64,000 bases of DNA from positions 12,733 to 76,732 of IMG/VR virus record IMGVR_UViG_2751185860_000001. The stretch is one strand, 5' to 3'. This DNA is from a virus. Its lineage: Duplodnaviria; Caudoviricetes. How positions within the stretch are numbered: the stretch's first letter is position 1; each line of letters opens with the position of its first letter. The notes under the pieces were generated by a model. It was not told the origin of the DNA. It did not search any database and saw only the letters and a program-made list of their open reading frames with translations. Made by a program: the position numbers and the translations under genes. Below, one piece after another: positions 21,588-54,175 of this stretch.

Positions 21588-22142
21588 GTGTCAATGAAAA
21601 ACGTTTGTTACAAACAGGAGTTCGTTATGAACAATCTTATAGAGATTAAAAAACAAGTGATTGATCAGGAAACTGTTCAGACAGTCAACGCACGTGAGTT
21701 GTGTGCTTTTTTAGAGGTAGGAAAAGATTTTTCTACTTGGATTACAAACCGCATTAATCAGTATGAATTTGTTGAAAATCAAGACTTTGTTTGCTCCCCT
21801 ATTTTGGGGAGCAAAGGCAGAGGTGGTCACAATCGCAAAGAATACCATCTCACCTTAGACATGGCGAAAGAGTTATCCATGGTTGAACGTAATGATAAAG
21901 GACGTCAAGCCCGTCGATATTTTATTGAATGTGAAAAAAAATTAAACAGTCAATTACAATTTGATCGTGAACTGTTTTCTCGTGATTTATTAAAATCACC
22001 TTCAGGTATTGGTGAAATTTTAGAAATAATTATGACACGTTTATTAGATGCAAATGGTTTTGAAAAAGAGCTTGAACATTACAAATCAGTTACAACAGAA
22101 GCCAAGCGTGTTTTAGAAAGCCCTGTTGCAAAGGCTGCTTAA
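21588..22142 (+). CDS. Antirepressor, AntA/AntB N-domain (start probably the later ATG near 21627)
   Basis: VNARELCAFL...DMAKELSMVERN...ARRYFIECE. Confidence 0.9.
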   Translation: MSMKNVCYKQEFVMNNLIEIKKQVIDQETVQTVNARELCAFLEVGKDFSTWITNRINQYEFVENQDFVCSPILGSKGRGGHNRKEYHLTLDMAKELSMVERNDKGRQARRYFIECEKKLNSQLQFDRELFSRDLLKSPSGIGEILEIIMTRLLDANGFEKELEHYKSVTTEAKRVLESPVAKAA

Positions 22143-22208
22143 TTACAAAGAATATAACCATACCTTTCCCCTGTAAAATGGGGAGAGGTTAAGTTTTATA
22201 TTTGTATG
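21975..22208 (+). repeat. 234-bp inverted repeat, left copy
   Basis: Base-by-base reverse complement of 53942-54175 as read by eye. Confidence 0.95.
22162..22197 (+). terminator. Terminator hairpin inside the inverted repeat
   Basis: CCTTTCCCC...GGGGAGAGG stem followed by TAAGTTTT. Confidence 0.65.
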
Positions 22209-22217
22209 TTTAGCAAT

Positions 22218-22454
22218 TTACTTACATTGCTGAATAGAGAAACATCCGTATTTGTAGGGCACAAACTCATAACTTTGTTTTTCTTCCCATTGCGTAAATA
22301 AAAATAAGTACTTTTGAAAATCTATACTTGAAAGGCGTCCTCCGAATTCTTGAAGGAAAGCTAACAATAGTTTTTGCCGTTTGAATAGAATCCTACTTTT
22401 TACTGTTTTCATAGTATTATTTCTGTATCTGATTGATATTTTGCTTAGAACCAA
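22218..22454 (-). pseudogene. Truncated gene fragment resembling the N-terminus of DUF488-associated proteins
   Basis: FKRQKLLL...DFQKYLFLF...FVPYKYGCFS, then an abrupt stop 10 bp from the repeat edge; family assignment from memory. Confidence 0.45.
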
Positions 22455-22634
22455 CCCAATGAAATTATATCACAAAAAAGTATTTATGCACTGATAAAAT
22501 CAACAATAATTGTTTATTTTCAATAATTTATGCTGTTTTTTCTTTGGAAAAATGGACTGTGTTGTGCTATAGTAAAAGCAGCTTTTCATATCCGTATTTC
22601 ATTTCAATTATTTTCCTTAGAAAAGATATCAAAC

Positions 22635-23081
22635 ATGCTTAATAAAGTAATTTTAATCGGCTATCTGGGTGCCGATCCCGACAGCAGAATAATGCCATCT
22701 GGAGTAGAAGTAGCAAATTTTCGTATGGGCACTTCTCAAAGTTATACAGATAAAACAACCTCTCAAAGAATAAATAAAACAGAATGGCATTCTATTGTGA
22801 TTTTTAATCCGCATCTTGCAAAGATTGCGCTTCAGTATCTCAACAAAGGTTCCAAAGTTTACATTGAAGGTCAATTACAAACACGTAAATGGCAAGATAA
22901 AGATGGGCAAACACGCTACACAACAGAAATTGTCTTACCGCAATATAAAGGTGAGTTAAAAATCCTTGATAGTGCTCAAAAGTCTGATCCTGACATGGCT
23001 ACTCAAGAGCAAACAATGGCATGGGAGAGTGGTGGTCGAGAGTCTTTAGAAACGACTTTGAATGACAGAATCCCATTTTAA
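22635..23081 (+). CDS. ssb: Single-stranded DNA-binding protein
   Basis: MLNKVILIGYLG...TEWH...VYIEGQLQTRKW; acidic tail ending IPF. Confidence 0.95.
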   Translation: MLNKVILIGYLGADPDSRIMPSGVEVANFRMGTSQSYTDKTTSQRINKTEWHSIVIFNPHLAKIALQYLNKGSKVYIEGQLQTRKWQDKDGQTRYTTEIVLPQYKGELKILDSAQKSDPDMATQEQTMAWESGGRESLETTLNDRIPF

Positions 23082-23097
23082 TCAGGAAAGTTAATTT

Positions 23098-23628
23098 ATG
23101 AAGAAACGCAAAAAAAGGGGAAGACCTAGAATAGAAGGTCAAATAAGAAAACCCAATGGACGTATCTCGTGTGCAAAAACGCCTGATAAGTCTTCATATC
23201 AACAGACACTTGAAATGCGTGCCAAGCGTTATGGAGCGAGTATTCAAGATGCGAAAAACCCACTTATGGGCACTTATGTAGGGCGGTTATATTTATTGGA
23301 AAAAAAGATTAATCAAGATCAGTACGATGCATCACAGCAGTATATTCAAGTGCGAAACAATTATCGGTGTGCGAAAGGATTACCAGGGGCTATTTATGAT
23401 GAAATGCCAACATCTTCTGATGATAGCGAAAGGAACAAGTGGGTTGAAGTAACAACTGATCGCTATAAAGCGATGCAAGAGGTTATCAGAGAAACACAGA
23501 GACTGCATCGTCGGTATAATCTTCATGATGCATTAGAGCATCTGGTTATTGAAGACCAACAACTGCCACATCTTGTCAACTCTCTACGCATGGCTCTGAA
23601 TGCTCTTCACAAATATTTTGATCCTTAA
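23098..23628 (+). CDS. Hypothetical DNA-binding protein, candidate late-gene regulator
   Basis: Basic KRGRPR N-terminus; occupies the Q position upstream of the late promoter. Confidence 0.45.
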   Translation: MKKRKKRGRPRIEGQIRKPNGRISCAKTPDKSSYQQTLEMRAKRYGASIQDAKNPLMGTYVGRLYLLEKKINQDQYDASQQYIQVRNNYRCAKGLPGAIYDEMPTSSDDSERNKWVEVTTDRYKAMQEVIRETQRLHRRYNLHDALEHLVIEDQQLPHLVNSLRMALNALHKYFDP

Positions 23629-23636
23629 TAAAAGGA

Positions 23637-23683
23637 TTGACATCAGATTTAAAATTAATAAAATGTGTATATATTTACACATT
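23637..23683 (+). promoter_or_regulatory. hicAB promoter with palindromic operator
   Basis: TTGACA-16-TAAAAT overlapped by AATGTGTA-N6-TACACATT (23662-23683). Confidence 0.7.
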
Positions 23684-23696
23684 ATGAGTATATAAA

Positions 23697-23897
23697 ATGG
23701 AACAAGATAGCCGAAAAATCATTGCAAAATTAAAGTGTGACGGCTTTGAACTTGTTAAAGTAAAAGGTTCTCATCATAAATTTAAAAAAAATGGTCAAGT
23801 AATTATCGTTCCCCATCCTAAAAAAGACTTGCCAATTGGTACAGCGCGTTCCATTGCACAACAAGCGGGCTGGTTAAAAAAAGGAAAAGAAGAATGA
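23697..23897 (+). CDS. hicA: HicA toxin
   Basis: KGSHHKF...VPHPKKDLPIGT. Confidence 0.95.
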   Translation: MEQDSRKIIAKLKCDGFELVKVKGSHHKFKKNGQVIIVPHPKKDLPIGTARSIAQQAGWLKKGKEE

Positions 23898-24289
23898 AAA
23901 GATTTTTTGCTCTTGTTCACAAGGATGAAAATTCTGCTTTTGGTGTTCAGTTTCCTGATTTTAAAGGACTATTTTCTGCTGCCGATCAGGAAGAAAATCT
24001 TATTGCTAATGCAACAGAAGCTCTTCAACTATATTGCGAAGAAATGGATAAATTGCCAACTCCTTTAAAATTTGAAGAAGTGATACAGAAAGAAACTGTC
24101 AAAATAGCTTTGTCGGAAGGAGCTTTTTTAATACAAGTTCCATTTGTTGAAAATGATTCAGAAGTGGTGCGTATGAATATATCAATTGAACGAGGGCTCT
24201 TGCGTGCAATTGATGATTGTGCACAAGAAAGAGGCTTAACACGATCTGCCTTTTTAGCAACGGCAGCACGTCATGAGCTTAATATTTGA
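23894..24289 (+). CDS. hicB: HicB antitoxin
   Basis: FGVQFPDF N-domain; C-terminal ribbon-helix-helix (RGLTRSAFL). Confidence 0.95.
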   Translation: MKRFFALVHKDENSAFGVQFPDFKGLFSAADQEENLIANATEALQLYCEEMDKLPTPLKFEEVIQKETVKIALSEGAFLIQVPFVENDSEVVRMNISIERGLLRAIDDCAQERGLTRSAFLATAARHELNI

Positions 24290-24401
24290 GTCATCAGATG
24301 TAATGAGAAAATTTACAACTTTTCTTCTACGACCATTTACACTTAACAAATACCATATTTAGTTTGATTGAAATAAAAAATACCAGATTGTGATTTTTTA
24401 G

Positions 24402-24529: not shown

Positions 24530-24578
24530 GATTTAAAAAATCAAATTCAGTCACTCCTATTTTTTTATGATTTACTGG

Positions 24579-25116: not shown

Positions 25117-27866
25117 GTGAAGTCAAATACCCATGCAAAGCAAGTTGAACGCTTTGCTGAGACTGCTCAAAATTATATCACGCGCTTAACAAACATTTTA
25201 GCAGAGCCAGATACTGAAGTACGGCAAGCCTTTGACAGTTTCTTAGCAAAATTGCGTAATGATTTAAATAACACGACCACAGAAGGCGATGCGATTGAAA
25301 TGCTTGCACAGCATATTATCATGCTTCCTGTGTTTAAAGTGTTGTTTGAAGAATACCAATTTATTCGTGAAAATCCTGTGTCACGTGCTATACAACGTGT
25401 GCTTGATGCGCTTAAGAAAGCTAACTTTGAGCAAGAATCTAAAGATCTTGAAAAATTTTACGATAGTGTAAAATTACGGGCCTGTGGACTTACCGATCCA
25501 CAAGAAAAGCAAAAATTGATTTTAGAGATTTATGAAAAGTTTTTCCGTTATGCATTTCCACTCACTGCTCAAAAACTAGGTATTGTCTACACTCCCATTG
25601 AAGTTGTCGATTTTATTATTCATTCAGTCAATGAGGTCTTACAAACTGAATTCGGCAAAACGCTTGGTTCACCCGGTGTTAAGATTATGGACTCGTTTAC
25701 GGGAACGGGAACTTTTATCACACGGCTTTTACAATCTGGACTGATTAAAAAAGAGGAGATGGAATATAAATTCCGTCATGAGATTTATGCCAATGAAATA
25801 GTACCGTTAGCATACTATATCGCGGGCATTAATATTGAAGCCACATACCATAGCATTATGAGTGGAGATTATGTGCCATTTGAGGATATTTATTTAACCG
25901 ATACATTCCAGCTTTATGAGCAGGGAAAAGATCAGATGAGTGATTTGCATGAAGCAAAACAGTAAATGTCAGGAAAAACGAGATATTCGTGTCATTATTG
26001 GCAACCCACCCTATTCTGTTGGGCAAAAAAGTGAAAACGACAATGCGAAAAATCTCAGTTATCCAAAATTAGATAATTATATCCATGAGACTTATGTAGC
26101 TCGATCTAAAAGCGTTAATTTACGATCACTTTATGACAGTTATATTCGTGCAATTCGTTGGGCGAGTGATCACATAAAAGATTGTGGCGTTATTGGTTTT
26201 GTCACCAATGCAGGTTTTATTAATGCACGTTCCACGGATGGCTTACGAAAATGTTTGAGTGAAGAATTCTCGAGTATTTATATACTTAATTTACGGGGGG
26301 ATATTCGTAAAAATATGTTAAGTAAAGGGCGTGCTCAAGAAGGTCAGAATATTTTTGGTAGTGGAAGCATGACAGGTATTGCCATAACAATTCTTATCAA
26401 AAATCCAGATATTACTGAACCTTGCAAAATCTACTACTATGACATCGGTAATAATCTAACGAGAAAAGAGAAACTGTCTGAACTTCAGCGTTTTGGCAGT
26501 ATTGGTGGCATCAAGCGTGAACATGGTTGGCAAGTGATTACACCAGATGAGCACGTCGATTGGATTAATCAACGCAACAGTGATTTTGAAAAATTACTCG
26601 CTTTAGGAGATAGGAAAGGCGGTGATTTAAAATTATTCGAAACTTTTTCCGGTGGTGTTCAAACTAACCGAGATGCTTGGGCATACAATTCAAGTCGTGA
26701 AGCTTTAGCAAAAAATATGAGCAATATGATTACCTTCTATAACAATGAAGTAGAGCGTTTTAATGCTACATTCTCCCTCTAATCGTAAAGCACGTGAAAA
26801 TGCTGTAGATGATTTCGTCAGCCCAGATGCTAGAAAAATCAGTTGGAGCCGTTATCTCAAACAACAGTTAACTAAAGGAAATACTTTCGAATTTGAGAAT
26901 GACAGTCTTACCCAAAGCCTTTATAGACCTTTTACACGCCAGTGGCTTTATTATAATCATGCTCTTAACGAAAAAGTATACCAAATATCACGCATATTTC
27001 CTATAAAAGAGGTCGTTGAAAACAAGGTAATCCAAGTCACAGGAGCCGGAGAAAGAGTAGACTTTTCTGTTTTGATGACTAAGGATTTACCTGATCATGG
27101 TGCAATGGATGTTGCCCAATGTTTTCCACGGTATATTTATGAAAATACTGCATCTTATGCAAAGGAAACCAAAGCAGCTTGCTTACAACGACGTGATGCT
27201 ATAACTGATGAAGGATTAGCATATTTTAAAGAAGCCTATCCTGGCCAAACAATTACAAAGGATGATCTCTTCTTTTACGTTTATGGAGTGTTACATTCTG
27301 AAGGTTATCGTACTCGCTACGCTCATAATCTTTCCAAACAATTGCCTCGTATTCCAACGGTTAAAAAAGTAGAGGACTTTTGGGCTTTTGTTAAAGCTGG
27401 TCGAAAGCTTGGTGATTTGCATACAAATTATGAAGAGATTGAACCATATCCTGTTACATATAAACAAGGTGATCCAAGCACTTGGATTATTGATGACAAA
27501 GTCAGTTTCTACCGTGTTGAGAAAATGAAGTTTGCTGGCAAGCGTGGAGCTATTGATAAAAGCACTGTAATTTATAATGCGCAAATTACTATGCAAAATA
27601 TCCCATTGGAAGCTTATGATTATATAGTAAGTGGCAGACCTGCTCTTGAATGGGTTATGGATAGGCAAATTGTAAAAACCGATAAAGCAAGTGGCATTGT
27701 TAATGATGCTAATCGCTATGCTGTGGAGACTGTTGACAATCCTGCTTACCCCTTAGAATTGTTTCAACGGGTGATTACTGTAAGTTTAGAAACAATGAAA
27801 ATTATTCGTCATCTTCCAAAATTAGAAATGAGAGAAGTCGAAGATACTCAAAAAACTCTACACTAA
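25117..27866 (+). pseudogene. 5'-truncated, twice-frameshifted type ISP (helicase-methyltransferase) restriction-modification gene
   Basis: MTase motif I-like DSFTGTGTF, NPPY, and C-terminal specificity region in three ORFs (25117-25965, 25940-26782, 26763-27866); no nuclease or helicase part. Confidence 0.85.
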
Positions 27867-28726: not shown

Positions 28727-29296
28727 ATGAATAAAAAGAATAGAGAAGGATTGTCAGCTCGAGCGTTTGCAAAGAAGATGGGCGTTTATCCTAATGCGGT
28801 TATTGCCCGTTTTAAGACGGGGAAGTTTGATGAAGCGCTTTATGATGACGGTTCTATCAATGAAAAATTAGCAACAGCTTTATGGAATGAGAATCCCACC
28901 AAGCAAGCCTATATTGTAGGCGATGATGGAAAGCCTCGCACAAAGACAAAGCAGGATTCTATAGAAGGGGCTAATGAACACAAGATAAAACTCCAGAGAA
29001 TGCAAATTGCACTTGAAAGTGAAACGATTGATCTTGAGCAGAAAAAAGAAACAACACTTGACCGTGAAGAAGTAAGGAGAGGAGCACGTAATTTTGGAAG
29101 AGCTTATCGTGATATCATGCTGCATTTTCCTCATCGTTACGGTGCGCGTATTGCAGCAAAGGTTGAGTGTAATGCCGCAAGTCTGATTGGTGCCATTGAT
29201 CACTATATCCGAGAAGCTTTACAGGAAATCATAAAAGTTCCCGTTCCTTTCCATGATCAAGACCCTCCCGATCATAAGGAAGAGAAGAATGACTGA
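28727..29296 (+). CDS. Terminase small subunit
   Basis: N-terminal HTH and coiled coil; overlaps terL start. Confidence 0.75.
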   Translation: MNKKNREGLSARAFAKKMGVYPNAVIARFKTGKFDEALYDDGSINEKLATALWNENPTKQAYIVGDDGKPRTKTKQDSIEGANEHKIKLQRMQIALESETIDLEQKKETTLDREEVRRGARNFGRAYRDIMLHFPHRYGARIAAKVECNAASLIGAIDHYIREALQEIIKVPVPFHDQDPPDHKEEKND

Positions 29297-31184
29297 TACA
29301 GGAGAAGGTTTTTTTTATTTTCATGCCAGTCAAGCATGCCAACCAGATCCTCCCTACACAGTTTCACAATGGGCAGATAAAAACCGTTATTTAAGTACAG
29401 TAGCCAGTGCTGAACCTGGATTATGGAGGACCAAACGTACCCCTTATTTACGGGAAATCATGGACAATCTTTCCTCTTACGTCCCAATTGAAAAAACAGT
29501 GGTGATGAAAGGTGCACAGATTGGTATGTCAGAGGCTGGCTTGAACTTTTGTGGTTATGCTATTCACCATAGTCCTGGTCCTGTTCTTTATGTGATGCCT
29601 ACAGTTGAGATGGCAAAGAAAGTATCTAAGACCCGTCTTGACCCTATGATTAAGGCCAGCCCTGCATTAAGCGAACGTATCTCTCCTGCCCGCGCTAGGG
29701 ATAGTGGGAATACAATGTTTTCGAAAGAATTTGATGGTGGGGTATTAATGCTTACAGGAGCCAATAGTGCTGCTGGCTTGCGATCAATGCCTATTCGTTA
29801 TTTGGTTCTTGATGAAATTGATGGCTATCCATTGAATGTTGATGGAGAAGGAGATCCTGTCAATCTTGCTGAAGCACGTACCGCAACTTTTATTCAACGA
29901 AAGATTTTTAAATTATCAACACCAACTCATCGTGACACAAGTCGTATAGCTAAAGATTTTGTCCTAGGAGATCAGAGATATTACAATATTCCTTGTGATG
30001 GATGTGGTACACTTCAACCCATTGTCTGGTCACAAATTAAATGGCCCAAAGGGGCTCCTGAACAGGCTGTATTTGTTTGTGCACATTGTGGTCATGAGCA
30101 TGCTGAGCACCGTAAGGAAGATTTATTATCTGAAGAAAGGGGTGCTTGTTGGATACCAACAAAAGAGCCAATTAGACCTCGTTTGCGCTCTTACCATATC
30201 TCAGCACTCTATTCACCTTGGATGACATGGGGAGAGTGTGCTCTCAAATTTTTAGAAGCTAAAAATGATCCTGCACTTTTACAGACTTTTGTTAACATCA
30301 TTCTAGGTGAACCATGGGAAGATAAATCAGGAGAAGTCATTGATCCAGATAGCTTGTATGCCCAACGTGAAGATTATCCTCTTGCCCCTGCCAAAGCAGT
30401 CCTCCTCACAGCAGGCGTTGACGTACAAAATGATCGCTTAGAACTTGAAGTTGTAGGTTGGGGACGTGGTGAAGAAAGTTGGAACATTGATTATCAAGTC
30501 TTCCCTGGTGATCCCTCTTCTCTAGACGTTTGGGATCAATTGGATGAGTATCTTCAAAAACGATGGCCCCATCCTGGTTTCAAAGACGGAATAGAAATAG
30601 CAGCTGCTTGTATTGATACAGGGGGTAACCATACACAAGCCGTTTACAATTATGTGCGTCCTCGTGAAGGTAGACGTATCTGGGGCATTAAAGGACATGC
30701 AGGATCGCGCCCTGTATGGCCACGTCGCCCCAGTAAAAACAACAAAGGACAGATTAATTTATATATCGTTGGTGTTGATTCAGCAAAAGATACCATCACA
30801 AGGCGCTTTAAAAAATCAGGTCCTGAAGCATCAGGAGCTGGTGCAACGCACTTTCATAAAAACCTTGATAGAGAATATTTTGAGCAACTCACTGCTGAAA
30901 AAAAGGTCATCAAATATTTCAAAGGTCATCAGCGGATAGAATGGCATAAAAGTGAAACAGCAAGAAATGAAGCTCTCGATTGTAGGGTTTATGCTTATGC
31001 TGCCTTACAGGGTCTGATTTTAGCAGGTCTCAATCTTAATAAAGAAGTCGACATCTTAGAAGAGCGTTTGAAAAACATTGAAACTTCTTCAACCACAGTA
31101 CCAAAAAGACTGAGACCAGAACCTGAAAAAAAACAAACCGTAATAAAAAGAAACCCTTATATGCAACGAGGTTGGGGATGGTAA
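29289..31184 (+). CDS. terL: Terminase large subunit, lambda gpA family
   Basis: KGAQIGMSE, LVLDEIDGY, NEALDCRVYA. Confidence 0.95.
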   Translation: MTDTGEGFFYFHASQACQPDPPYTVSQWADKNRYLSTVASAEPGLWRTKRTPYLREIMDNLSSYVPIEKTVVMKGAQIGMSEAGLNFCGYAIHHSPGPVLYVMPTVEMAKKVSKTRLDPMIKASPALSERISPARARDSGNTMFSKEFDGGVLMLTGANSAAGLRSMPIRYLVLDEIDGYPLNVDGEGDPVNLAEARTATFIQRKIFKLSTPTHRDTSRIAKDFVLGDQRYYNIPCDGCGTLQPIVWSQIKWPKGAPEQAVFVCAHCGHEHAEHRKEDLLSEERGACWIPTKEPIRPRLRSYHISALYSPWMTWGECALKFLEAKNDPALLQTFVNIILGEPWEDKSGEVIDPDSLYAQREDYPLAPAKAVLLTAGVDVQNDRLELEVVGWGRGEESWNIDYQVFPGDPSSLDVWDQLDEYLQKRWPHPGFKDGIEIAAACIDTGGNHTQAVYNYVRPREGRRIWGIKGHAGSRPVWPRRPSKNNKGQINLYIVGVDSAKDTITRRFKKSGPEASGAGATHFHKNLDREYFEQLTAEKKVIKYFKGHQRIEWHKSETARNEALDCRVYAYAALQGLILAGLNLNKEVDILEERLKNIETSSTTVPKRLRPEPEKKQTVIKRNPYMQRGWGW

Positions 31185-31187
31185 TCC

Positions 31188-31436
31188 ATGTATGAGAAAT
31201 CAAAGCAAATAAACTGGAAATATGAAAGACTTGCACAGCTTAAAAAACGACGAGAACAACTGGAAAATGCACTTTATTCAGGTGCGCAATCTGTGCGCCA
31301 CGGCGATAAGCAAGTCAATCATCGTTCGACTGAAGATATACGCAAAGCCCTTACAATGTTGACTGAGGAAATAGCCCTTCTTGAAGGATACAAGCCTTCA
31401 TATGTTTATTATCTTAACGCATCACGAGGCTATTAA
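31188..31436 (+). CDS. Head-tail joining protein, gpW-like
   Basis: 82 aa between terL and portal. Confidence 0.7.
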   Translation: MYEKSKQINWKYERLAQLKKRREQLENALYSGAQSVRHGDKQVNHRSTEDIRKALTMLTEEIALLEGYKPSYVYYLNASRGY

Positions 31437-38478: not shown

Positions 38479-38480
38479 TA

Positions 38481-39752: not shown

Positions 39753-39753
39753 T

Positions 39754-42700: not shown

Positions 42701-42912
42701 GTTCGACTTTCAAAATGGAGCTGCAACTGGATGATGGTGATTTCACTTCCCTAAAATTAGAAGAAACAGAACAACTCGCACAGCCACTTTGGACGGAACG
42801 TAAATTTGTCAGTGAAGATAAGACAGCTGGGCAAGCGCGTTTGAGACTGACATTAACTGGCGGTCCTGCTGCACGTTCTATGGCAAGTGATTTTGGTGCG
42901 GGAATTATGTGA
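39754..42912 (+). CDS. Large baseplate/tail protein (DUF4815-like)
   Basis: 1052 aa; QSAELNEVQ N-terminal motif; follows gpI. Confidence 0.7.
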   Translation: MEHESGLPFAIDRSVGKDEQQSVVFYGERPFIQSAELNEVQTIIRGRHDRLGRLVAKEGDRIERADAFVDQSTQKVTLTEGKIFIAGDIFPVAETVLNNVPMLGRVEIGVKLQKQWITHEDDPQLLGQIPGTLAEGEPGAARETAKLVWALQNDKQEGVFFPVYILQDGTLIDQKPPSLLEPALQAIATYDRAHGHYIVNGCRVTALGQNDGKQIFSIEEGEANINGFKHKRLAALRHEEPEDYCEGIVPSETHLFTSKKAKATKSEKTSFTFETYYFPIATVHSILLTKEKTTNVTRGGVASGRDGVPDKSVVSFVKVVQGDKEFKEGVDFKKTGDTIDWSLSGDEPKPGSTYEVTYHYRAKVDADKVTAREITVSDGAEGGDIIVSYTYKLPRIDRIGLNAQGGVVYIQGISADNPIAPSVPDDILSLATITNNWLDYPRVDNNGTRVAPYAEMWRYFNRVLDLDRLLQLEKIKSNVDSKEPVSKKGMIADPFLDDSLRDEGIEQTGAIGHGLLRLAIEPTFYYASLNEPVTLDWENEVIIAQELMTACEKINPYQNFDPLPGTLALTPATDFWRVQRTDWLSGVTNELSMGSRPGGGRTTETKDELVSTHQEQIDFLRQIDLNFKIEGFGKGEILESLTFDGVNVLPKETLTANPQGIIEGKFKIPKDITAGTKNVIAVGTGKTTATGLFTGQGVIDVQVMRRVTTVRVWKKSDPQAQVFTPDETRQITGIDFHICKIGNRAHDLMIDLVTTDNGYPTSDIQAQALYSMKEAETGWAAARYSVPLTVLNDRLTAFVIKTDDGDHSVSLAKLGDFDEENQRYVSSHPYITGPRFSSVNAQTWTAHQDEALAFRVLAARYTQTEKTVDLGEFDLKECSDLQVRAAIELPSSECSVIFEIERNNGTIYQLLPFQLLSLTEYISEKVQLRAILKGTGKLSPVLFAPIELIAGKIRKEATYVTRAFSFGEKSRLTSYIKTFLPGGSTFKMELQLDDGDFTSLKLEETEQLAQPLWTERKFVSEDKTAGQARLRLTLTGGPAARSMASDFGAGIM

Positions 42913-42925
42913 CAGGAGTAATATC

Positions 42926-44361
42926 ATGGCGAAAACAGAGAAGTTAGGAATGGAATTACCTCAAGAAGGTCGTTTTATCAGCGCTGAATTTCCTCTTTTA
43001 CGTAAAAACCTGATTATCATTGACCAAGCCGTTTCTGATCTGGATGAAAAAGTGGATGAGAAGGCTCCTTCACAGCATACTCATGAGATGAGTGAAGTCA
43101 GTGGACTTGAAGATGCACTCAGTGGAAAGATGGAGGTAGATAAGACCTTTGCCTTGGTTGATTTAACTGATATCCAAGGTGCCAACGATGCAGCTGAAAA
43201 TCATGTTTTGTATAAATCAGGTGAGGATGCTTTGCCTTTGGCACTGCTCTCTCGCTCTTAGGCGAACACCAGCATACCATTGAAGATATCACAGGTCTTG
43301 AAGAGTATGTAGAAAGCGTCAATGTAGATTTGAAAGATTATGGGTGTTTGTCTGGTGAAAATGCGTGGGAAGATACCAATGTTTTCAAAGGTAAAGTCAG
43401 TGTTGAAAAGGACATTGAATTAACTGAAACCTCTTCTTTAACTTTGAAACAAAGTGATAAAGTGGTGACACAGTTAAATGCAACTGGAAGTTTGCTTAAA
43501 GGGCCTCTTAAGGTTGATGGCAAACCCGTTTACACCAAACCGCAAGCGGATAAAGCTATATCGGAAGAAATAGAAAAACTAAAACAGTCTTTGACTGATG
43601 AGAACTCGAGTTGCTCTGTTGTCATCAATAAGCTCGTTCATTGGCCTAAGCGTGCTGATGCCGAGTTACTTTACACACAAAGTGGGAAGATTAAGTGGCC
43701 AGATTGGATAACCGATGAAGCCGTGGTTGAAATCCAAGCGTGGGGCGGCGGCGGTTCTGGTGGGGGAGCTGGTCAGATACATTTGGGCGGCGGTGGCGGT
43801 GGAGGAGGATGCTCAGTATGGTATGGCCATAAATCAAGTTTGAATGAGCATGAAGACTTCATCATTGGTAAAGGTGGAGCTTCTGTAAAAGATAAAAATA
43901 CGTCAGGCAATCCTGGTGGAAAAACAACTGTTGGAAAGAATCTTATCGTAGCCACAGGCGGCGGTGGGGGGTGGGGAGCTTCTGACACTAGTTCAGGACA
44001 AGGTGGTGTTGGAGGAGAAGGAAAAACCGTTACTGAATTAATGGACGGTCGTCCAGATCTTGCCAAAAGTGGCAATGGTAGCTCGGGAACGAAAGGCAAT
44101 GCTAGATTTAAAAGTGGCTTTGGTGGTGATGCTGGAGGGGATACATCAAGAGGCGGCTGTGGAGGGACTGGCAGGGGGCACTTTATTTCAGGTAAACCAG
44201 GTCGTGGATTTGGTGGTGGCGGTGCTGGATCGCATTATCAAAATAATCCCAGTGGCAATGGAGCTAATGGTGCTGTTCTTATAAGAATATGGAAGAAACC
44301 ATATGAAAAGATCAGTGATCTAAATTATAAAGCTTTCAGTACTTTAATGCGACAGGAATAA
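42926..44361 (+). pseudogene. Gly-rich tail fibre A, broken by a 1-bp deletion near 43228
   Basis: Alignment to the intact paralogue restores FAFG...HQHTIEDITGLE in the -1 frame. Confidence 0.85.
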
Positions 44362-44362
44362 T

Positions 44363-45712
44363 ATGATGGCGAAAACAAATAAGTTGGCAATGGAATTACC
44401 CTTAGAAGGTCGTTTTATTAGTGTTGAATTTCCTATTACACGTGAAGATTTGATAATAATTGATCAGGCGGTTTCTGATCTTGACGAAAAAACAGATGGT
44501 AAGGTGCCTTTACAGCACACTCATGAGATGAGTGAAGTCAGTGAGCTTGAAGAAGCATTAAGTGGCAAGATGGCAACAGATAAAACATTTGCTTTGGTTG
44601 ATTTGACTGATGTCGAAGGTGCCAACGATGCACCTGAAAATCATGTTTTATATAAATCAAGTGAGGATTGCTTTGTCTTTGGTGATCCGACATCACTCTT
44701 CCACCCGCACCAACATGAAGCTGAAGATATTACAGATCTTGAGAAATATATAGCAACTGTCAATGTAGATCTGAAAGATTATGGATGTTTATCGGGTAAA
44801 AACGAATGGGAAAATACCAATGTTTTTAAAGGTAAGATCAACATTGAAGAAGGTGTTGAATTAGCTGAAACCTCTTTTTTAACTGTAAAGCAGAAAGATA
44901 AAGTGGTGACAAATTTAAGCACAACTGGAAGCTTGCTTAAAGGACCTCTCAAGATTGATGATGAACCCATTTATACTAAATCGCAATTGGATGAAGCTAT
45001 GTCAAAAGAAATCGAAAAACTGAAACAATCTTTGACTGATGAAAATACAAGTTGCTCTAAGCTTGCTGATGCGGAATTACTTATTACACAAAGTGAGAAA
45101 ATTAAATGGCCAGATTGGGCAACTGATGAAACCAAAGTTGAGATCCAAGCATGGGGCGGCGGCGGCGGTAGTGCAAAGAACAATGATTATCCGGGTGGCG
45201 GTGGCGGTGGTAGTGGCTGCGTAGTGTGGTATGGCTATAAGTCAAGTTTAAATGGACATCACGATATCATCATTGGTAGTGGGGGACATGATGGTGGTGG
45301 ATCAGGCTATGGTGGTAATTCTGGAGGACACACAATTATAGGCAATAATTTTATTGCCGTCGCAGGTGGTGGCGGTGGTGGGCCCGGTGTTGAACAGAAG
45401 GTAGGAAACAGTGGCTACGGGAGTAGAGGAGATAACTTTGGTTTGGTAACTGATGAACATCCCGGTCTTGTCAGAGCTTGTAATGGTTATGCCGGAGGGC
45501 ATGGAGAATATAAACAAAGAAGTGGCTTTGGTGGCAATGCAGGCAATGCGATAAAAGGGGTTACTGGAGCACAGGGAGGTGGTTTAGGTAACCTTATCTC
45601 AGGAGTTGGAGGTGCAGGTTATGGTGGTGGTGGTAGTGGTGCTCGTGGAGCTCAAGATGCTGGCGGTAAGGGAGCTAATGGTGCTGTCCTTATAAGACTA
45701 TGGAAGAATTAA
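44363..45712 (+). CDS. Gly-rich tail fibre B (intact)
   Basis: N-terminus paralogous to fibre A; EIQAWGGGGG...GAVLIRLW domain. Confidence 0.85.
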   Translation: MMAKTNKLAMELPLEGRFISVEFPITREDLIIIDQAVSDLDEKTDGKVPLQHTHEMSEVSELEEALSGKMATDKTFALVDLTDVEGANDAPENHVLYKSSEDCFVFGDPTSLFHPHQHEAEDITDLEKYIATVNVDLKDYGCLSGKNEWENTNVFKGKINIEEGVELAETSFLTVKQKDKVVTNLSTTGSLLKGPLKIDDEPIYTKSQLDEAMSKEIEKLKQSLTDENTSCSKLADAELLITQSEKIKWPDWATDETKVEIQAWGGGGGSAKNNDYPGGGGGGSGCVVWYGYKSSLNGHHDIIIGSGGHDGGGSGYGGNSGGHTIIGNNFIAVAGGGGGGPGVEQKVGNSGYGSRGDNFGLVTDEHPGLVRACNGYAGGHGEYKQRSGFGGNAGNAIKGVTGAQGGGLGNLISGVGGAGYGGGGSGARGAQDAGGKGANGAVLIRLWKN

Positions 45713-45967: not shown

Positions 45968-46084
45968 AGAAGGACACTTCAGTTAAGTTTCATCAAAACC
46001 TTTCTTAAGAAAGCAGTGCAAGGCCAAATAGATTTATTTGGCCTTTATTTTTTCATCAGCCAATCATTTAAAGGAGCACCAAGA

Positions 46085-47476
46085 ATGGCATCAGGATTTT
46101 TACACGGTGTTGAAGTCATCGAGAATGACGATGGCACACGCCCTATTGCGCCAATTCAGTCGGCAGTTATAGGCATTGTAGGTACAGCACCCAATGCAGA
46201 TGAAGAGGTCTTTCCTCTTAATACACCGGTTTTAATATCAGGATCTCTTTCCAAGGCAGCTAAACTCGACAAATACAACACAGGAGAAGGTACACTGCCC
46301 AATGCTGTTGATCTGATTTTCAAACAAGCAGGTGCCATTGTTGTTGTGGTGCGCGTAGAAGAAAGCAGAGATGAAAACAAAACATTGACGAATGTTTTAG
46401 GTGGTGTCAATGCCAATGGTTCTTACGAAGGTGTCCATGCTTTCATAGGAGCACAATCCATCGTTGGGCAAACACCACGCATTCTGATTGCTCCTGGTTT
46501 TACTCACAAACGCGATGCTGGTGTGTCTGCTATAAGTGTCTCAAACGGAGGCAGTGGTTACACATACGCTACTGTTAAAATAGAAGGCAATGCCAAGGCG
46601 ACAGCTATTGTTTCTGATGGAGAAGTGCGAAGCATTGTAGTTGATGAGAGTGGAAGTGGTTATGAAGAAGCCCCTCGTGTAACCATTGAAGGTGATGGAG
46701 AAGGTGCCACAGCCGAAGCGACAATCAAAAAAATGTCTAATCCCGTAGCAGCAGAGCTAATTGGTATTGCTGAACGTTTACGCGCTATTGTGGTGATTGA
46801 TGGACCCAACACAACGGATGAAGAAGCAATCTCAACGAGAGGAGATTTTGATTCCAAACGTGCCATCATAGCTGACCCATTTGTAAGTGTTTTGCGTAAT
46901 GGAAGAATTTCACAAGAACCAGCAAGTTCAGTAGTTGCCGGTATTATTGCTAAAACAGATTTCACGCACGGTTTTTGGCATTCTCCTTCAAACAAAGGGA
47001 TCAATGGCATTAGTGGTACAGCACGACCCATTGATTTTGCCATTGGTGACAGTTCCAGTCGTGCTAATTTGCTTAATGAAAAGAATATAACAACAATCAT
47101 TCGTGAGAATGGTTATCGCTTATGGGGTAATCGTACACTTTCATCAGATCCAAAGTTTGCTTTTATATCCGTGGTGAGAACTGCAGATATGATTAACGAT
47201 GCCATTTTACGTGGGCATATGTGGGCAGTCGATCGAAACATCACAAAAACTTATCTGAGCGATGTGAGTGAAAGCGTCAATGCTTATTTACGTGACTTGA
47301 AAGCACAAGGCGCCATTATTGGAGGGCGTTGTTATCCTGACCTCGAACTTAATACACCAAGTGCCATTGAAAGTGGACAAGTCTATTTCAATGTCGAATT
47401 CCAACCAACCACGCCAGCAGAACGCATCACGTTCCGTTCGCGTATTGTCAATGATTACATAGAGGAGATCCTTTAA
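46085..47476 (+). CDS. Tail sheath protein (P2 FI family)
   Basis: FLHGVEVIE, WHSPSN, LWGNRT. Confidence 0.95.
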   Translation: MASGFLHGVEVIENDDGTRPIAPIQSAVIGIVGTAPNADEEVFPLNTPVLISGSLSKAAKLDKYNTGEGTLPNAVDLIFKQAGAIVVVVRVEESRDENKTLTNVLGGVNANGSYEGVHAFIGAQSIVGQTPRILIAPGFTHKRDAGVSAISVSNGGSGYTYATVKIEGNAKATAIVSDGEVRSIVVDESGSGYEEAPRVTIEGDGEGATAEATIKKMSNPVAAELIGIAERLRAIVVIDGPNTTDEEAISTRGDFDSKRAIIADPFVSVLRNGRISQEPASSVVAGIIAKTDFTHGFWHSPSNKGINGISGTARPIDFAIGDSSSRANLLNEKNITTIIRENGYRLWGNRTLSSDPKFAFISVVRTADMINDAILRGHMWAVDRNITKTYLSDVSESVNAYLRDLKAQGAIIGGRCYPDLELNTPSAIESGQVYFNVEFQPTTPAERITFRSRIVNDYIEEIL

Positions 47477-47982
47477 TGATTGCACCTAGATTACCAAGAG
47501 CTTTGAAACATTTTAACATTTATGTTGATGGGATTCCCTATAGAGAAAAATGTGACAGTGTTACTTTACCAAGTTTAAATTTCGTCGTTGAAAGTTTTCG
47601 TGCAGGTGGCATGGATGTTCCTGTTGGAATCGAGATGGGAATGGAAGAGCTCACGCTTTCTATGACTGTTGCAGATTGCTCTGACGAACTTCTAGGTCTT
47701 TTGGGTAAACCCAATATTGATATTTCTTTGCGTGGTGCAATTCAAGCACAGGGTGCAGCAGAAGAAGGAGTTGTAATCTCCATGCGTGGATTTTGCAAGG
47801 GCTATGAACCTGGCCAATGGCAGCCTGGTGCTAAGTCTACCACAACGATCAATTATACCCTGAATTATTTCAAATATGTTCAAAATGACAAGGAAATCGT
47901 TGAGATTGATGCTTACAACATGGTGAGAAAATTCAATGGCGTTGATCAATTAGCAAAACATAGAGAACTTTTAGGAATGTAA
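47476..47982 (+). CDS. Tail tube protein (P2 FII family)
   Basis: RAGGMD...GMEEL. Confidence 0.95.
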   Translation: MIAPRLPRALKHFNIYVDGIPYREKCDSVTLPSLNFVVESFRAGGMDVPVGIEMGMEELTLSMTVADCSDELLGLLGKPNIDISLRGAIQAQGAAEEGVVISMRGFCKGYEPGQWQPGAKSTTTINYTLNYFKYVQNDKEIVEIDAYNMVRKFNGVDQLAKHRELLGM

Positions 47983-48267: not shown

Positions 48268-48381
48268 ATGGCCGATATTGCTATCGTGTTTCATTGGCCC
48301 CTTTCAGAGATGATGGAAATGGAACCTCAAGAGCTCTGGTTTTGGCGCCATAAAGCTGCAGAAAGGTATAAGAAAAAATGA
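48268..48381 (+). CDS. gpE' extension (37 aa, absent from ORF track), probably reached by -1 frameshift
   Basis: MADIAIVFHWPLSEMMEMEPQELWFWRHKAAERYKKK; -1 frame open from 48190. Confidence 0.8.
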   Translation: MADIAIVFHWPLSEMMEMEPQELWFWRHKAAERYKKK

Positions 48382-50419
48382 GTAAAACAGTTGCAGATGC
48401 TAAGGTGCGATTGACCCTTGAAGACAAGATAACTGCACCCATTAAACGTATTCAAAAACGTTTAACGGACTTATCAAATAAATTATCAAATAAGTTTAAA
48501 ATCCCTCGCCTTATGGCTGCGACACGCAAAATGACAGCAAGCTTAAAAGGGGTCAACAATGCTCTTGGTACAGTAACCAACCGTGTTTCTATGTTATCAG
48601 GAGCATTAGGCCTTGCTGGTGGCGGTCTTGCTGCAAGCTTGACTGCAGTGACTATGAAAACCATGCATATGGGGGATAGTCTTCACCACGCATCGCGTCA
48701 TTTAGGTATGAGCGTTAAAGATCTTCAGTTATGGGGTGATGCAGCGGATAATTCAGGTTATTCTGCTGAGAAATTCCAACAATCCCTGGCTGTTTTAAAC
48801 AGGCGTTCAGCACAAGCTTTAGCTGGACAAAAAAGGGGAATTATGGGGTTTCAGGCGCTTGGTATTTCTGTAAAAGATGCCTCTGGAAAGCTTAAATCAA
48901 ACTCAGACTTGTTAGAAGAAATTACCGACAAGATGAGTAAGATAGACAACCAAGCACAAAGACAACATATTGCTGCCTTGCTTTTTGGTGGTGACGGTAA
49001 AGAAATGGCTGCCATGCTCTCGCAAGGTATGGAGCCTATCAAGGAGTTGTTTGAAAAGGCAAAAAAGAGCGGATGGCTTATGGGGGCTGATGTTGCTCAC
49101 TATGCTGCAGATTTAAATGATAAGCTTGGAGCTTTTAAGAAAAAACTGGGCGGTGTTGCCACTTTTATTGGGGCACGGTTCATGCCGGTAATCAATGATT
49201 TGATTGATGCCTTTTCAAAGTTGATTGATGAAAACCGTGATCTCATTCAAACAACTGTCGCAAATTGGGCGAGGGTTTTAAGAAAAGCTATACAGGATTT
49301 ATGTGATCCTACTTCTGAATTAAGGCAAAATATCACAAATGTTACAGAAAGTATTAAAGGCTGGTTTCGATGGTTAGAGCCACTAATTGGTGAGATAACT
49401 CTCTTTAAAATAGGTCTTACAGCTCTTGTGGCCTTCATTGTGGGGCCACTGGTTTCAGCACTTGCTGTGGTTGGTGCAGCGTTTGTTACATTTGGTACAA
49501 CTATTGTTACCCTTATTATGGGGCCACTTATAACAGCGATTTACACACTTACTACAGCTTTTTTACATTTGGTGCGGCCATTATGACCACACCTGTTGGG
49601 TGGATTGCAGCAGCTATTATAGGGCTTATTGCAGCAGGGGTCGCACTTTATGTCTATTGGGATAAAGTCAAGAAAGTGCTTACTATAGCACTCAATAAGA
49701 TTTGCGATGCCTTTGTTAAGCTGGGTGACTTCATTATGAAGTATACGCTTATCGGTTATGTAATTAATGGCATTAAGAAGCTTGTTGCAACAGCTGTTTG
49801 GCTTTACGAAAATTGGGATGAGGTCATGGCCTCCTGCGGGCGGTTATGGAGCTCTCTTGGGGAGACAATTAATCAATTTTTTGATTGGTTTTCTAATCTC
49901 AGTTTATTTGAGGCAGGTGCTAGCCTGATTACAGGTCTGTGGGATGGTCTCAAAAGCGTATGGGATACTATGACACAATGGCTTTCTGGTGCGGTGCAAA
50001 AATTAATGGGGTGGATGCCTGATTTTGTTAAAGACAAGCTAGGATTTAACGTTACAGTTAGCAAAAACACTACCGAGAGTTTAAAGAATCTCACACAAGA
50101 GACAAAAACATACGCACAAAAGATTATTCATTCAACTGTTGTTTCTAACATCTCTCCTGAGCAACGTTATTACACAGATGAGAGATATGTTAATGGTGAA
50201 GGTAGGCGACCTTATGGGGAGGCATTTAAAACGCCTGAACCGATTATGGCACATAAGGAAAATAAGACGACTAATGTTGATGCATCTATTACGATTAGCG
50301 GTTTAAACATCAGTGGGGGCAGCGGTTCACCGCAGGATATTAGTGCTGCTATTAAAAAAGCTCTTGCAGATCAAGCTAGACAGCAACGTTTAGCAATTAA
50401 CTCAAGTTTATCGGATTAA
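48378..50419 (+). pseudogene. Tape measure protein split at T6 run 49559-49564 (frameshift or recoding)
   Basis: ORFs 48378-49586 and 49583-50419 join by a -1 shift giving TAFFTFGAAIMTTPVGW. Confidence 0.75.
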
Positions 50420-51035: not shown

Positions 51036-52348
51036 AACCTTTCTGCAGGGTGATGTCTAATGGTGAGGATGTCACAAAAGCTTTAATGGATTATGTTCTA
51101 TCCATTGAAATAACCGATGAAGCAGAAGACAAAAGTGATCGGATCACCATAGAGCTCGATGATCGTGCGCGCATCAGTGATAATGGTTTTTTAGAGATCC
51201 CTTTAATTGGAACAGTTATTTCTATAACGCTTGGTTATGAAAATGGTAAAGCACGTGACATGGGATCCTATCTGATTGATGAAATATCTGTCAGCAGTCC
51301 ACCACAAAGTTTAAGTGTGACAGGACGTGCGGCTTCTATGAACACGTCTTACCGAACCCCCAAAAGTCAGTCTTATCATCAGATAACACTGGGCAAGATT
51401 ATTCAAGAGATAGCAACACGCAATGGCTATATTCCCGAGGTTGATCCTTCTCTTGCAAAGATTGTCGTGCGTCACATTGATCAAACGGGTGAAAGCGACA
51501 TGGCTTTTGCAACACGTCTTGCTGCAGAATATGACGCTGTCGTAAAGCCTATGGATAACAGACTTGTTCTAGCTAAACGTGGTGAAGGAAAAGCCATTAC
51601 TGGAGAGATGCTGTCTGTGGTCACTATTCATGAAAGGATGTGTAGCTCTTGGGATTTTAAATATAATGCACGCGATGAAGCAGGGGAAGCCCAGGGCTTA
51701 ACATCGGGTGAAGGGGATGATCAAAAAGCTGCATCAGCAGCACAAAACCCAGAGACAATTGAAGAGTATGATGAAGAAACATCCATTCATATGGATGAAT
51801 CTCCTTTGCGTTCATTAGCTCGTTCAGAAAACACACTTAAAAAGCAAGAGAAAGTTGAAAAGCAAGAGGAAGAAAAGAAAGGAGGTGTGATAGCAACCTA
51901 TCATGATTTACGCAGTGGTGAAAAGAAAGAGGTCAAAACCGGTCAAGCGCCTTTTCATGAATTAAAATATACCTACCACAATCAATCAGAAGCCGTTGCT
52001 GCTATTGCCGCTTATCGTAATAAATCATCACGGGGTAAAGCCACATTTTCGTGTGATATGGGTGGAGATCCATTCATTCAAACTGAAATGAAGCTTATCC
52101 AAGTCCCTCCTTTCCGTCCTTACATTCCAGAACAATGGCGCATTAAAAGTGTCAAACATCGGTTGGATACAGCGGGCGGTTATACAACAAGCATAGAGTG
52201 TGAACTGTTTAATGAAGCACAAGAGAATACAGCGCAAAACGTCATAAACACCACACCCGATAAAGACGACACAATAGATGATAACGCCCCGCCTCATGCT
52301 TACGATGAAGGTGAAGGTGTTATTCATATGGAAGGGGAAGATACATGA
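51032..52348 (+). CDS. Late control D / baseplate hub
   Basis: TDEAEDKSD, QTGESDMAFATRLA. Confidence 0.9.
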   Translation: MKPFCRVMSNGEDVTKALMDYVLSIEITDEAEDKSDRITIELDDRARISDNGFLEIPLIGTVISITLGYENGKARDMGSYLIDEISVSSPPQSLSVTGRAASMNTSYRTPKSQSYHQITLGKIIQEIATRNGYIPEVDPSLAKIVVRHIDQTGESDMAFATRLAAEYDAVVKPMDNRLVLAKRGEGKAITGEMLSVVTIHERMCSSWDFKYNARDEAGEAQGLTSGEGDDQKAASAAQNPETIEEYDEETSIHMDESPLRSLARSENTLKKQEKVEKQEEEKKGGVIATYHDLRSGEKKEVKTGQAPFHELKYTYHNQSEAVAAIAAYRNKSSRGKATFSCDMGGDPFIQTEMKLIQVPPFRPYIPEQWRIKSVKHRLDTAGGYTTSIECELFNEAQENTAQNVINTTPDKDDTIDDNAPPHAYDEGEGVIHMEGEDT

Positions 52349-53532
52349 CAGAGATTGTAGAAAAATTACTCAATGGTGAATGCAAAGCACGTACACAAGG
52401 TCTGGTGAAATCCTTAGCACAAGAGATTGGTTGTGAAGAAGCTGTCGTTGCTGCGATTATTTCTGTGGAGTCAGATGGTAAAGGTTTTGATGATGAACAG
52501 CGTGTAAAAGTCCTTTTTGAAAAACATCAGTTTTATAAGAATTTACCCCCTCATAAGCGTAAACAAGCTGTCAAAGAAGATCTTGCGAGAGAGAAGTGGA
52601 TTAGCCCCAAAGATGGAGGATATAAAGAGCAAAAAACAAACACTCAAGCTTTACAATTACTTATTGCAGCTATGACCATTGATGAAGACGCTGCTTTAAA
52701 ATCTGCTTCTTATGGTGCTGGTCAAATTATGGGAAATAACTATGGTATCCTTGGTTGGAATAGTGTTCAAGATTTTGTCACCAGCATGTGTTCGTGTGAA
52801 GACGAGCAAATAAGAGCAATGTTTTCCTTTTTCAAAGTTCGTGGTCTTGCCTCAAGTTTACGAGACAAAGATTTTAATGCCATTGCACGCGTTTACAATG
52901 GCAGTGGTATGGTTAAAGAATATGGCCGACGCATGCGTAATGCTTATTGTGCTCTCTCAAAAAAATCAGCAGAGGTTAGTAATTCTGTTCGTGCCAATGG
53001 TTTACGACTAGGGTGTAAAGGCTACCGTGTTGAAGGATTACAAAAACGTCTTAATGATCTTGGTTATCCTGTTGCCATTGATAGCGATTATGGACCAGAT
53101 ACACGCAGTGCAATCTTTTCATTTCAAGCTGATCATAATTTAGAGGTTGATGGTGTTGTTGGTGCAAAAACCCAAGAAGCACTTGATATAGCCACGCCAA
53201 TGATTAGTCCTCGCCGTTCTGGTGTCAGTATGGCGGATTTGAGAAAAAAGGGTACGAACATTATTAAAGATGCGGATAAAACCCAAATGGTGGGGGGTGC
53301 TGTTGCTGCCAGTTCAACTCTCATAGGAGCAGAACAGATGGGGCTATTTGATAGTCTTAAACTCTCGATAGGAAAAATGAGTTCTATTGTAGAGCCGCTT
53401 GTTCATATTGGTAAAGCAATCTCGGATCATTGGTGGATGGCTGCTATTTTTGTAGGATTGATTATTGTTCTCGTCTCAGATCGTGTCAAAAGAACTTATC
53501 TAAAAGCTTACAAGAAAGGCAGAGCTATTTAG
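52345..53532 (+). CDS. N-acetylmuramidase (DUF3380-like) endolysin with PG-binding domain and C-terminal TM
   Basis: VESDG...LFEKH...SASYGAGQIMG; LEVDGVVGAKT. Confidence 0.9.
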   Translation: MTEIVEKLLNGECKARTQGLVKSLAQEIGCEEAVVAAIISVESDGKGFDDEQRVKVLFEKHQFYKNLPPHKRKQAVKEDLAREKWISPKDGGYKEQKTNTQALQLLIAAMTIDEDAALKSASYGAGQIMGNNYGILGWNSVQDFVTSMCSCEDEQIRAMFSFFKVRGLASSLRDKDFNAIARVYNGSGMVKEYGRRMRNAYCALSKKSAEVSNSVRANGLRLGCKGYRVEGLQKRLNDLGYPVAIDSDYGPDTRSAIFSFQADHNLEVDGVVGAKTQEALDIATPMISPRRSGVSMADLRKKGTNIIKDADKTQMVGGAVAASSTLIGAEQMGLFDSLKLSIGKMSSIVEPLVHIGKAISDHWWMAAIFVGLIIVLVSDRVKRTYLKAYKKGRAI

Positions 53533-53564
53533 GAAGCTATTTTAAGAAAAAAGGAGAGCAGCGG

Positions 53565-53780
53565 ATGAAAAGATATTTGGTGATTGTAATAACAGCGTCC
53601 ATCGCTTTCTTTATAACTTTAGCAAAGGCATTTCGTCTTGGAAAGAAAGTTGAACAGCACAAACAAACAGAAGAATCTTTAAAAGTAGCAACAACAAGGT
53701 TGGAAATAGAAAATGAGATTAACAAGAAACGTGATGATGATGTACGTGCTGCTCTCTCTAACTGGGTGCGCGACAAATAA
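53565..53780 (+). CDS. i-spanin, putative
   Basis: Homologous to 19528-19755. Confidence 0.65.
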   Translation: MKRYLVIVITASIAFFITLAKAFRLGKKVEQHKQTEESLKVATTRLEIENEINKKRDDDVRAALSNWVRDK

Positions 53781-53928
53781 ATACGCTTCCTCTTGTCTTG
53801 GATGGTTGCCTATTTATTTAGACAGAAAAGATCTCAATGCAATCAGTCCAAACTTAGCACGAGACATTTTAAAGCATAATGAACACGGTAAACAGTTGTG
53901 TGGATGGATGCATGTTGACAAAACCTGA
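53713..53928 (+). CDS. o-spanin lipoprotein, putative
   Basis: Lipobox LTGC; homologous to 19688-19900. Confidence 0.7.
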   Translation: MRLTRNVMMMYVLLSLTGCATNKYASSCLGWLPIYLDRKDLNAISPNLARDILKHNEHGKQLCGWMHVDKT

Positions 53929-53941
53929 ATAACTTGCCCTG

Positions 53942-54175
53942 CATACAAATATAAAACTTAACCTCTCCCCATTTTACAGGGGAAAGGTATGGTTATATTC
54001 TTTGTAATTAAGCAGCCTTTGCAACAGGGCTTTCTAAAACACGCTTGGCTTCTGTTGTAACTGATTTGTAATGTTCAAGCTCTTTTTCAAAACCATTTGC
54101 ATCTAATAAACGTGTCATAATTATTTCTAAAATTTCACCAATACCTGAAGGTGATTTTAATAAATCACGAGAAAA
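53942..54175 (-). repeat. 234-bp inverted repeat, right copy
   Basis: Reverse complement of 21975-22208. Confidence 0.95.

Follow-up and report, generated by a model that had tools for sequence, protein, structure and literature searches.

A probable inversion of the late block between antirepressor cassettes in a Bartonella prophage

This analysis concerns a ~44-kb prophage that encodes a contractile tail, found within a 64,000-nt stretch of Bartonella DNA taken from IMG/VR record IMGVR_UViG_2751185860_000001 (hereafter the window, meaning that whole stretch; G000:C2:586447-650446 in the host genome). The late genes of this prophage, from ssb to the spanins, form a block of 31,733 bp (22209-53941, plus strand, with a DUF488 stub at its start) that lies between two antirepressor cassettes inverted relative to each other, and the block reads in the direction opposite to that found in related prophages. 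The most probable explanation is that the late block was turned by homologous recombination between the two inverted cassettes, and that this was a passive accident, one step towards the decay of the prophage, and not the work of a regulated switch.

The limits of the element are given by a 17-mer attachment (att) core at 20011-20027, which recurs at window coordinate 64355, 355 nt beyond the end of the window, and once more on the left side of B1, the neighbouring prophage (exact direct copies at C2 573581, 606457 and 650801). Because direct copies of the core lie at both sides, the element is a prophage of ~44 kb standing in tandem with a second prophage. The integrase gene, beside one att core, and the recombination genes, beside the other, are in their normal places; the inner block alone is misplaced. 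No transfer RNA gene was found at the att site in the window.

Gene order in the window and in related prophages

In the window, the gene for a tyrosine integrase (int; 20192-21349, plus strand, with Arm-DNA-bind_3, Phage_int_M and Phage_integrase domains) is followed by an antirepressor gene and then by ssb and the remaining late genes, all on the plus strand. The homologous prophage of G019, the complete genome of another Bartonella species, begins with int, a small RNA/open reading frame (ORF) and an AntA-type antirepressor gene on the plus strand, after which everything from lysis to ssb lies on the minus strand, in the order spanins, lysozyme, tail, head, terminase, a gpZ-like gene, a counterpart of 23098-23628 and ssb. 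Beyond this minus-strand block come an antirepressor cassette (minus), the early genes (minus) and the recombination arm (plus). The window and G019 are collinear save for one inverted block, 22530-53928, in which every gene has switched strand.

The same orientation as in G019 is found in further species. Of 63 integrase loci compared, all from other species of the genus, ~35 were informative, and in all of these (~35/~35) the lysis genes lie on the opposite strand directly downstream of int on the plus strand; the order int-antirepressor-ssb was seen in 0 of the ~35. Two loci, L021 and L032, reach as far as the homologous tail genes, which are again on the minus strand, and a second copy of this phage type in the same chromosome, P2, also has the canonical order. 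Since G019, P2 and the ~35 loci all show the opposite orientation, the int-antirepressor-ssb order of the window is, on this comparative evidence, derived. The original prediction had proposed that inversion between the repeats would restore the order of the family, and had named a layout shared with relatives as a finding that would speak against it; the comparison bears out the former, with G019 collinear except for 22530-53928 and both P2 and the ~35 loci in agreement, and the relatives do not share the window order. A distant blastn search of the phage collection for close relatives returned only terminase-level hits, to Wolbachia and Roseobacter phages.

The inverted repeat

By direct comparison, 21975-22208 is the reverse complement of 53942-54175 over 234 nt with 0 mismatches, and this perfect match is maximal, with no further matching base at either end. 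The left arm (21975-22208, plus strand) consists of 168 nt of coding sequence, which are the last 56 codons of one antirepressor gene, followed by 66 nt that contain a terminator-like hairpin (22162-22189); the right arm (53942-54175, minus strand) is built in the same way from the other antirepressor gene, with its hairpin at 53988-53961. The self-comparison thus agrees with the earlier description of two arms without mismatch, each made of the 3′ end of a different antirepressor gene and a terminator, and places the limits of homology slightly wider than had been claimed, at 260 nt with 96.9% identity or 299 nt with 91% in alternative alignments. Inward from the perfect tract, into the two antirepressor genes, matches fall to 17/25 and then 12/25, while similarity outside both terminators is at background level.

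The 5′ parts of the two cassettes are homologous as well, at 83% between 21443-21581 and 54543-54681 and at 91% between 21346-21403 and 54724-54781, and the two 5′ blocks as a whole are ~79% identical today, with values of 79-91% across alignments. In other cassette pairs of the same genome the 3′ module is only 85-89% identical, and in the pair of the G019 prophage its identity does not exceed 81%. With paralogous modules at 85-89%, the odds of 234 identical nt arising by chance are negligible, and given the divergence of these other pairs, the 234 perfect bases would represent a recent exchange tract, left by crossover or gene conversion between the 3′ modules. At 53941/53942, precisely the edge of the repeat, the window's identity to P2 changes from 97.3% to 87.9%, a drop that sustains the earlier claim that perfect identity beside diverged flanks points to recent exchange. 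As to which arm donated the tract, no call emerges: it is 88.8% identical to the module of a third copy, P3, and 87.6% identical to that of P2.

The antirepressor cassettes

The gene in the left cassette, antL (21588-22142, plus strand, stop at 22142), encodes an AntA-type antirepressor with an AntA domain at residues 33-102, and the gene in the right cassette, antR (54008-54502, minus strand, stop at 54008), encodes a Rha-type antirepressor with a Phage_pRha domain at residues 14-100. Their unlike N-terminal domains sit on one shared C-terminal module, which is 91% identical over 67 residues and identical over the last 55 residues, so that the pair fits the domain-shuffled pattern of Bro-network type, with different heads on a common C-terminal module. 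As the original prediction had held, a flip leaves both genes intact: because the arms are identical, antL and antR read alike in either orientation.

Upstream of each antirepressor gene lies a 5′ block with a promoter-like site, a putative structured RNA and a small ORF. In the left cassette (21346-21587, plus strand), the RNA at 21491-21582 resembles sRNA-Xcc1 (RF02221; full model, E = 8e-7, 46.3 bits against a gathering score of 53) and contains a terminator-like hairpin at 21564-21576, and the small ORF spans 21384-21587. In the right cassette (54531-54794, minus strand), the corresponding RNA at 54542-54633 matches the full model with 49.1 bits (E = 1.8e-7), again below the gathering score of 53, and the promoter-like site lies at 54668-54639. 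The sRNA-Xcc1-like RNAs overlap the small ORFs of both cassettes, and these ORFs may be non-coding. Each cassette is built on a common plan, in which a conserved 5′ block (promoter-like site, putative structured small RNA, small ORF) leads into a swappable N-terminal domain, a conserved C-terminal module and a terminator. The norm of the family is two such cassettes in inverted orientation that bracket the late block from ssb to the spanins, one by the integrase gene and the other by the early operon.

Sister copies in the same genome

The chromosome carries two more copies of the window's phage type, P2 (~923-968 kb) and P3 (~1,185-1,226 kb). The order of P2 is canonical and that of P3 is inverted at the integrase side, so that two of the three copies in this genome (the window and P3) are inverted. 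Leaving aside the arm next to att and the bases that immediately follow the 5′ block, P2 and P3 differ at one site in their integrase gene and 5′ block, and their late blocks (C2 933349-965747 and 1190040-1224105), which lie 258 kb apart in direct orientation, are 100% identical over 4,817 and 18,702 bp (23.5 kb). Even so, the late block is oppositely oriented relative to int in the two copies, and the switch point is the end of the 5′ block. Judged by their sequences, P2 and P3 are essentially one phage, and since they are near-identical yet oppositely oriented, cassette rearrangement in this genome is, by the same measure, recent relative to point mutation. The identical late blocks point either to very recent copying between the loci or to a risk in the assembly. 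The recombination-gene arms of P2 and P3 are merely 87% identical.

At its other end P3 has lost the right antirepressor gene and the entire early region, and the lysis end connects to the third antirepressor gene. This right junction is a fold-back, with arms of 37 nt and a 9-nt microhomology, and suggests that template switching deleted the early region. The fold-back lies at C2 ~1224100-1224180 (L088 ~700-780), where the arms surround the natural hairpin of the third antirepressor gene, which is joined to the lysis-side terminator. The partner of the repeat in P3 is just 63 bp long. The stretch between antirepressor and ssb in P3 contains two genes, one histidyl-tRNA-synthetase-like (484 aa; L087:2924-4378, plus strand) and the other a full DUF488 gene (302 aa; L087:4397-5305, minus strand), which together correspond to C2 ~1187623-1190004. 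In P2 this position is taken by a HigB-like toxin gene with a helix-turn-helix gene next to it and by a remnant of DUF488.

A model for the inversion

Recombination between the two inverted cassettes probably turned the 31.7-kb late block into its present order. What such an event calls for is present in the window and its host: the repeats reach 234 bp at 100% or 260 bp at 96.9%, the change of orientation relative to G019 and P2 is bordered within the cassettes, and the block is opposite in relatives while the flanks are collinear and the att cores direct. The agent would be host RecA, whose gene lies at C2 881536-882324, or the Bet-like, exonuclease and RuvC-like proteins whose genes the prophage itself carries. 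Family searches of 20192-64000 found no recombinase besides the integrase, and no serine invertase was found in or near the prophage, the sole Resolvase-family gene of the genome being on plasmid contig C1. The event may have occurred in the prophage or before integration, and the repeat would leave the block able to revert at a low spontaneous rate. That recombination was the cause, and that it was recent, we infer from the repeat and the comparisons above.

Two sets of adjacencies bear on where the crossover took place, and they favour different sites. The adjacency of int, 5′ block and AntA is conserved in other species, and together with the perfect 3′ tract this favours a crossover in the 3′ module. 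The adjacency of antL, DUF488 and ssb is common to the window and P3 (81-92% identity, unbroken), as that of the lysis genes and the Rha cassette is to the window and P2, and these two shared adjacencies would point to a 5′-block crossover, after which the 3′ modules were converted.

Several points weigh against inversion by accident as set out here. The orientation and the junctions are those of the assembled sequence, and the site of the crossover is ambiguous between 3′ module and 5′ block; the 5′ blocks, at ~79% identity today, make a poor substrate for RecA. Moreover, the finding that two of three copies are inverted could signal a recurrent, favoured process instead of an accident.

Two other origins were considered and set aside. 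Inversion between two prophages was rejected because all crossovers, worked out on paper, give either the canonical order or a block between two integrases, and neither outcome is compatible with direct att cores at a distance of 44 kb. A selective advantage of running the block in the direction of replication was dropped as well: the GC skew puts the origin at ~1.56 Mb and the terminus at ~0.78 Mb, and with the block of the window co-directional and those of P2 and P3 head-on, there is no consistent pattern.

Alternative explanations

The inverted late block could instead be one state of a working flip-flop, in which the block turns to and fro by the action of RecA or of induced phage recombinases, so that its orientation gates the late programme or virions hold two isomers. 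We regard this as unlikely. A perfect 234-bp inverted repeat is a competent substrate for such turning, the phage encodes Bet-like, exonuclease and RuvC-like proteins, and the near-identical P2 and P3 stand in opposite orientation, with two of the three copies inverted. Against these stand the absence of an invertase in or near the prophage and the absence of the flipped state from the ~35 loci of other species (0 of ~35), together with the fact that the repeat is not maintained by the family, the G019 pair being at most 81% identical. P3, in the inverted state, has lost one arm and the whole early region, and this decay in the inverted order fits a one-way accident better than a switch. Nor is there an evident read-through link that a flip could make or break, as a terminator ends each cassette in both orientations; the earlier suggestion that the prophage alternates between a read-through-connected and a disconnected state is weakened by this, and by a proposed late regulator that is matched by no informative family.

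It is likewise improbable that the two-cassette bracket is a built-in isomerisation device, in which recombination through the 5′ or the 3′ blocks repeatedly flips the late block. If it were, one phage would exist as two isomers, an inducible and a grounded one, or as two packaged forms, and a second flip, if it ran through another block than the first, would leave the antirepressor heads with their positions exchanged. Such a head swap would explain the occurrence of both AntA and Rha heads beside the integrase, depending on the species. An inverted phage might still be viable, given activation of its late promoters in trans.

There is very little chance that the block was simply misoriented in assembly because the 234-bp inverted repeat went unresolved. 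Short-read graphs leave the orientation of a unique segment between inverted repeats ambiguous, and this genome has long, near-identical prophage repeats; however, an assembly of three contigs that resolves identical repeats of 18.7 kb implies long reads, which easily span 234 bp, and P3 independently shows the order from int and antirepressor to ssb with a repeat partner of only 63 bp.

An ancestral layout, in which the lineage always had the order int-antirepressor-ssb-late and the repeat reflects shared domains kept alike by conversion without any inversion, has hardly any probability left and is on sequence grounds already largely refuted, for although P3 shares the left junction, unbroken and at 81-92% identity, G019, L021, L032, P2 and ~35 further loci are all oppositely oriented, and the att cores and both outer arms are canonical with the inner block alone differing.

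Comparison with known systems

The proposed accidental inversion of the late block has its closest counterparts in the genus itself. Repeats in Bartonella prophages drive inversions, as in an 800-kb inversion between two prophages that arose within ~470 generations (Gutierrez et al., 2018; PMC6257571), and prophages are associated with 48% of the inversions in wild B. krasnovii (PMC9540758). The induction of Bartonella prophages is temperature-dependent (PMC6257571). According to these two papers, which cite Iguchi et al. (2006), prophage-mediated inversion by homologous recombination is also found in E. coli O157. The published Bartonella cases resemble the window in that inverted homologous prophage sequences serve as recombination substrates, but they span hundreds of kb, join two different prophages and run through identical sequence kilobases in length (15 kb for the Tel Aviv strain). 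In the window, the inversion lies inside one prophage, uses gene modules of 234-300 bp and affects the late block only. A phrase search of the literature for inversions inside a prophage gave nothing useful.

Other phages carry site-specific invertible segments, such as the G segment of Mu with Gin, the C segment of P1 with Cin, and e14 with Pin, which have a dedicated recombinase and short crossover sites; segments of the Gin type comprise a few kb of tail-fibre genes. In HK022, as reported where it is cited in PMC6379469, an Int-mediated inversion within the prophage locks the lysogen (Dorgai et al., 1993). These systems share with the window a segment of prophage DNA inverted between inverted repeats. 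They differ from it in that the window has no invertase, its arms are the 3′ ends of genes and its segment is the entire 32-kb late region. The swapping of alternative gene ends, by which Gin, Cin, Hin and Pin systems are recognised, does not take place here either, as the identical arms leave both antirepressor genes the same.

The cassettes themselves recall RNA-gated antirepressor loci. One such locus is immI of P1 and P7, with the order c4 RNA-icd-ant. Another is isrK-orf45-anrP of Gifsy-1 (Hershko-Shalev et al., 2016; PMC4825925). The likeness lies in the apparent sequence of promoter-like site, putative structured small RNA with a terminator-like hairpin of its own, small ORF and antirepressor gene, and in both cassettes of the window a protein of an antirepressor family lies downstream of the RNA (AntA in antL, Phage_pRha in antR). 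The difference lies in the RNA: searches with the Rfam models of C4 and IsrK found no match in either cassette, even at E up to 1, and the sRNA-Xcc1-like RNAs score just under the gathering score (46-49 bits against 53).

The inversion adds a further example to a type of event already known, and what is new in it is the flipped state itself. It means that an architecture of inverted cassettes can turn a whole late region, which offers a route to grounding a prophage without mutation of any gene, and it provides a convenient system for measuring flip frequency. It also calls for caution in the assembly and annotation of Bartonella genomes, in which structural variation is already known to be prophage-driven.

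Anatomy of the prophage and its neighbours

The inverted block opens with the DUF488 stub (78 aa, 22218-22454, minus strand), followed on the plus strand by ssb (22530-23081), a gene whose only match is to a PHROG family of unknown function (23098-23628) and the pair hicA and hicB (23697-24289). The packaging and head genes follow, namely terS (28727-29296), terL (29253-31184), portal (31436-32950), and protease, decoration and major capsid genes up to 35719, and after them the genes for baseplate and fibres (36582-45712), sheath and tube (46016-47982), tape measure (48378-50419) and further tail proteins (up to 52348). Endolysin (52345-53532) and spanins (53430-53928) close the block, with all these genes from terS onward on the plus strand. 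Domain matches thus confirm ssb, HicA/HicB, head, tail and lysis among the contents that the original prediction had assigned to the block; its late-regulator and cos labels are unconfirmed, the candidate at 23098-23628 hitting only the PHROG family named above. Among 23098-23628, 60513-60854 and 60949-61260, Pfam, PHROGs and NCBIfam identify no late regulator, cI or cro.

Within the block, 25117-27866 is a remnant of a type ISP methylase/specificity gene inside the late operon, made up of three ORFs with the type ISP coupler, N6-methylase and C-terminal specificity domains and no nuclease half; a copy 79-83% identical to it lies at C2 853934-856717. A fibre-like gene is tandemly duplicated at 42887-45712, so that the duplicated fibre genes form direct repeats. 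The first copy is split into 42887-43261 and 43330-44361 (phrog_8139 positions 1-101 and 139-453) and the second, 44363-45712, is whole.

To the right of antR lies the early leftward operon (54992-60854, minus strand), which includes genes for a Dam methylase (55865-56800), DUF1376 replication-type proteins (57302-58802) and a RuvC-like resolvase (58789-59271), all on the minus strand, as well as genes for a hexapeptide-repeat protein and for small proteins without an assigned function. This operon is convergent with the lysis genes: the two meet tail-to-tail, not head-to-head as had been stated for the cro/replication operon. The rightward arm (60949-64000, plus strand) opens with two small proteins and continues on the same strand with the third antirepressor gene (61847-62590, AntA and KilAC domains), a gene for a Bet/RecT-like annealing protein (62470-63378) and an exonuclease gene that runs from 63305 to the end of the window. 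A further inverted repeat of 41 nt (90%) connects 54854-54894 with 61949-61989, joining remnant antirepressor sequence by the early operon to the third antirepressor gene, and the early region is likewise bracketed by inverted antirepressor-derived sequence.

On the far side of the att core, positions 1-20018 of the window belong to the late region of the neighbouring prophage, which is of a different type; over these 20 kb it is 99.8% identical to C2 722263-742280, a second copy of that neighbouring phage type.

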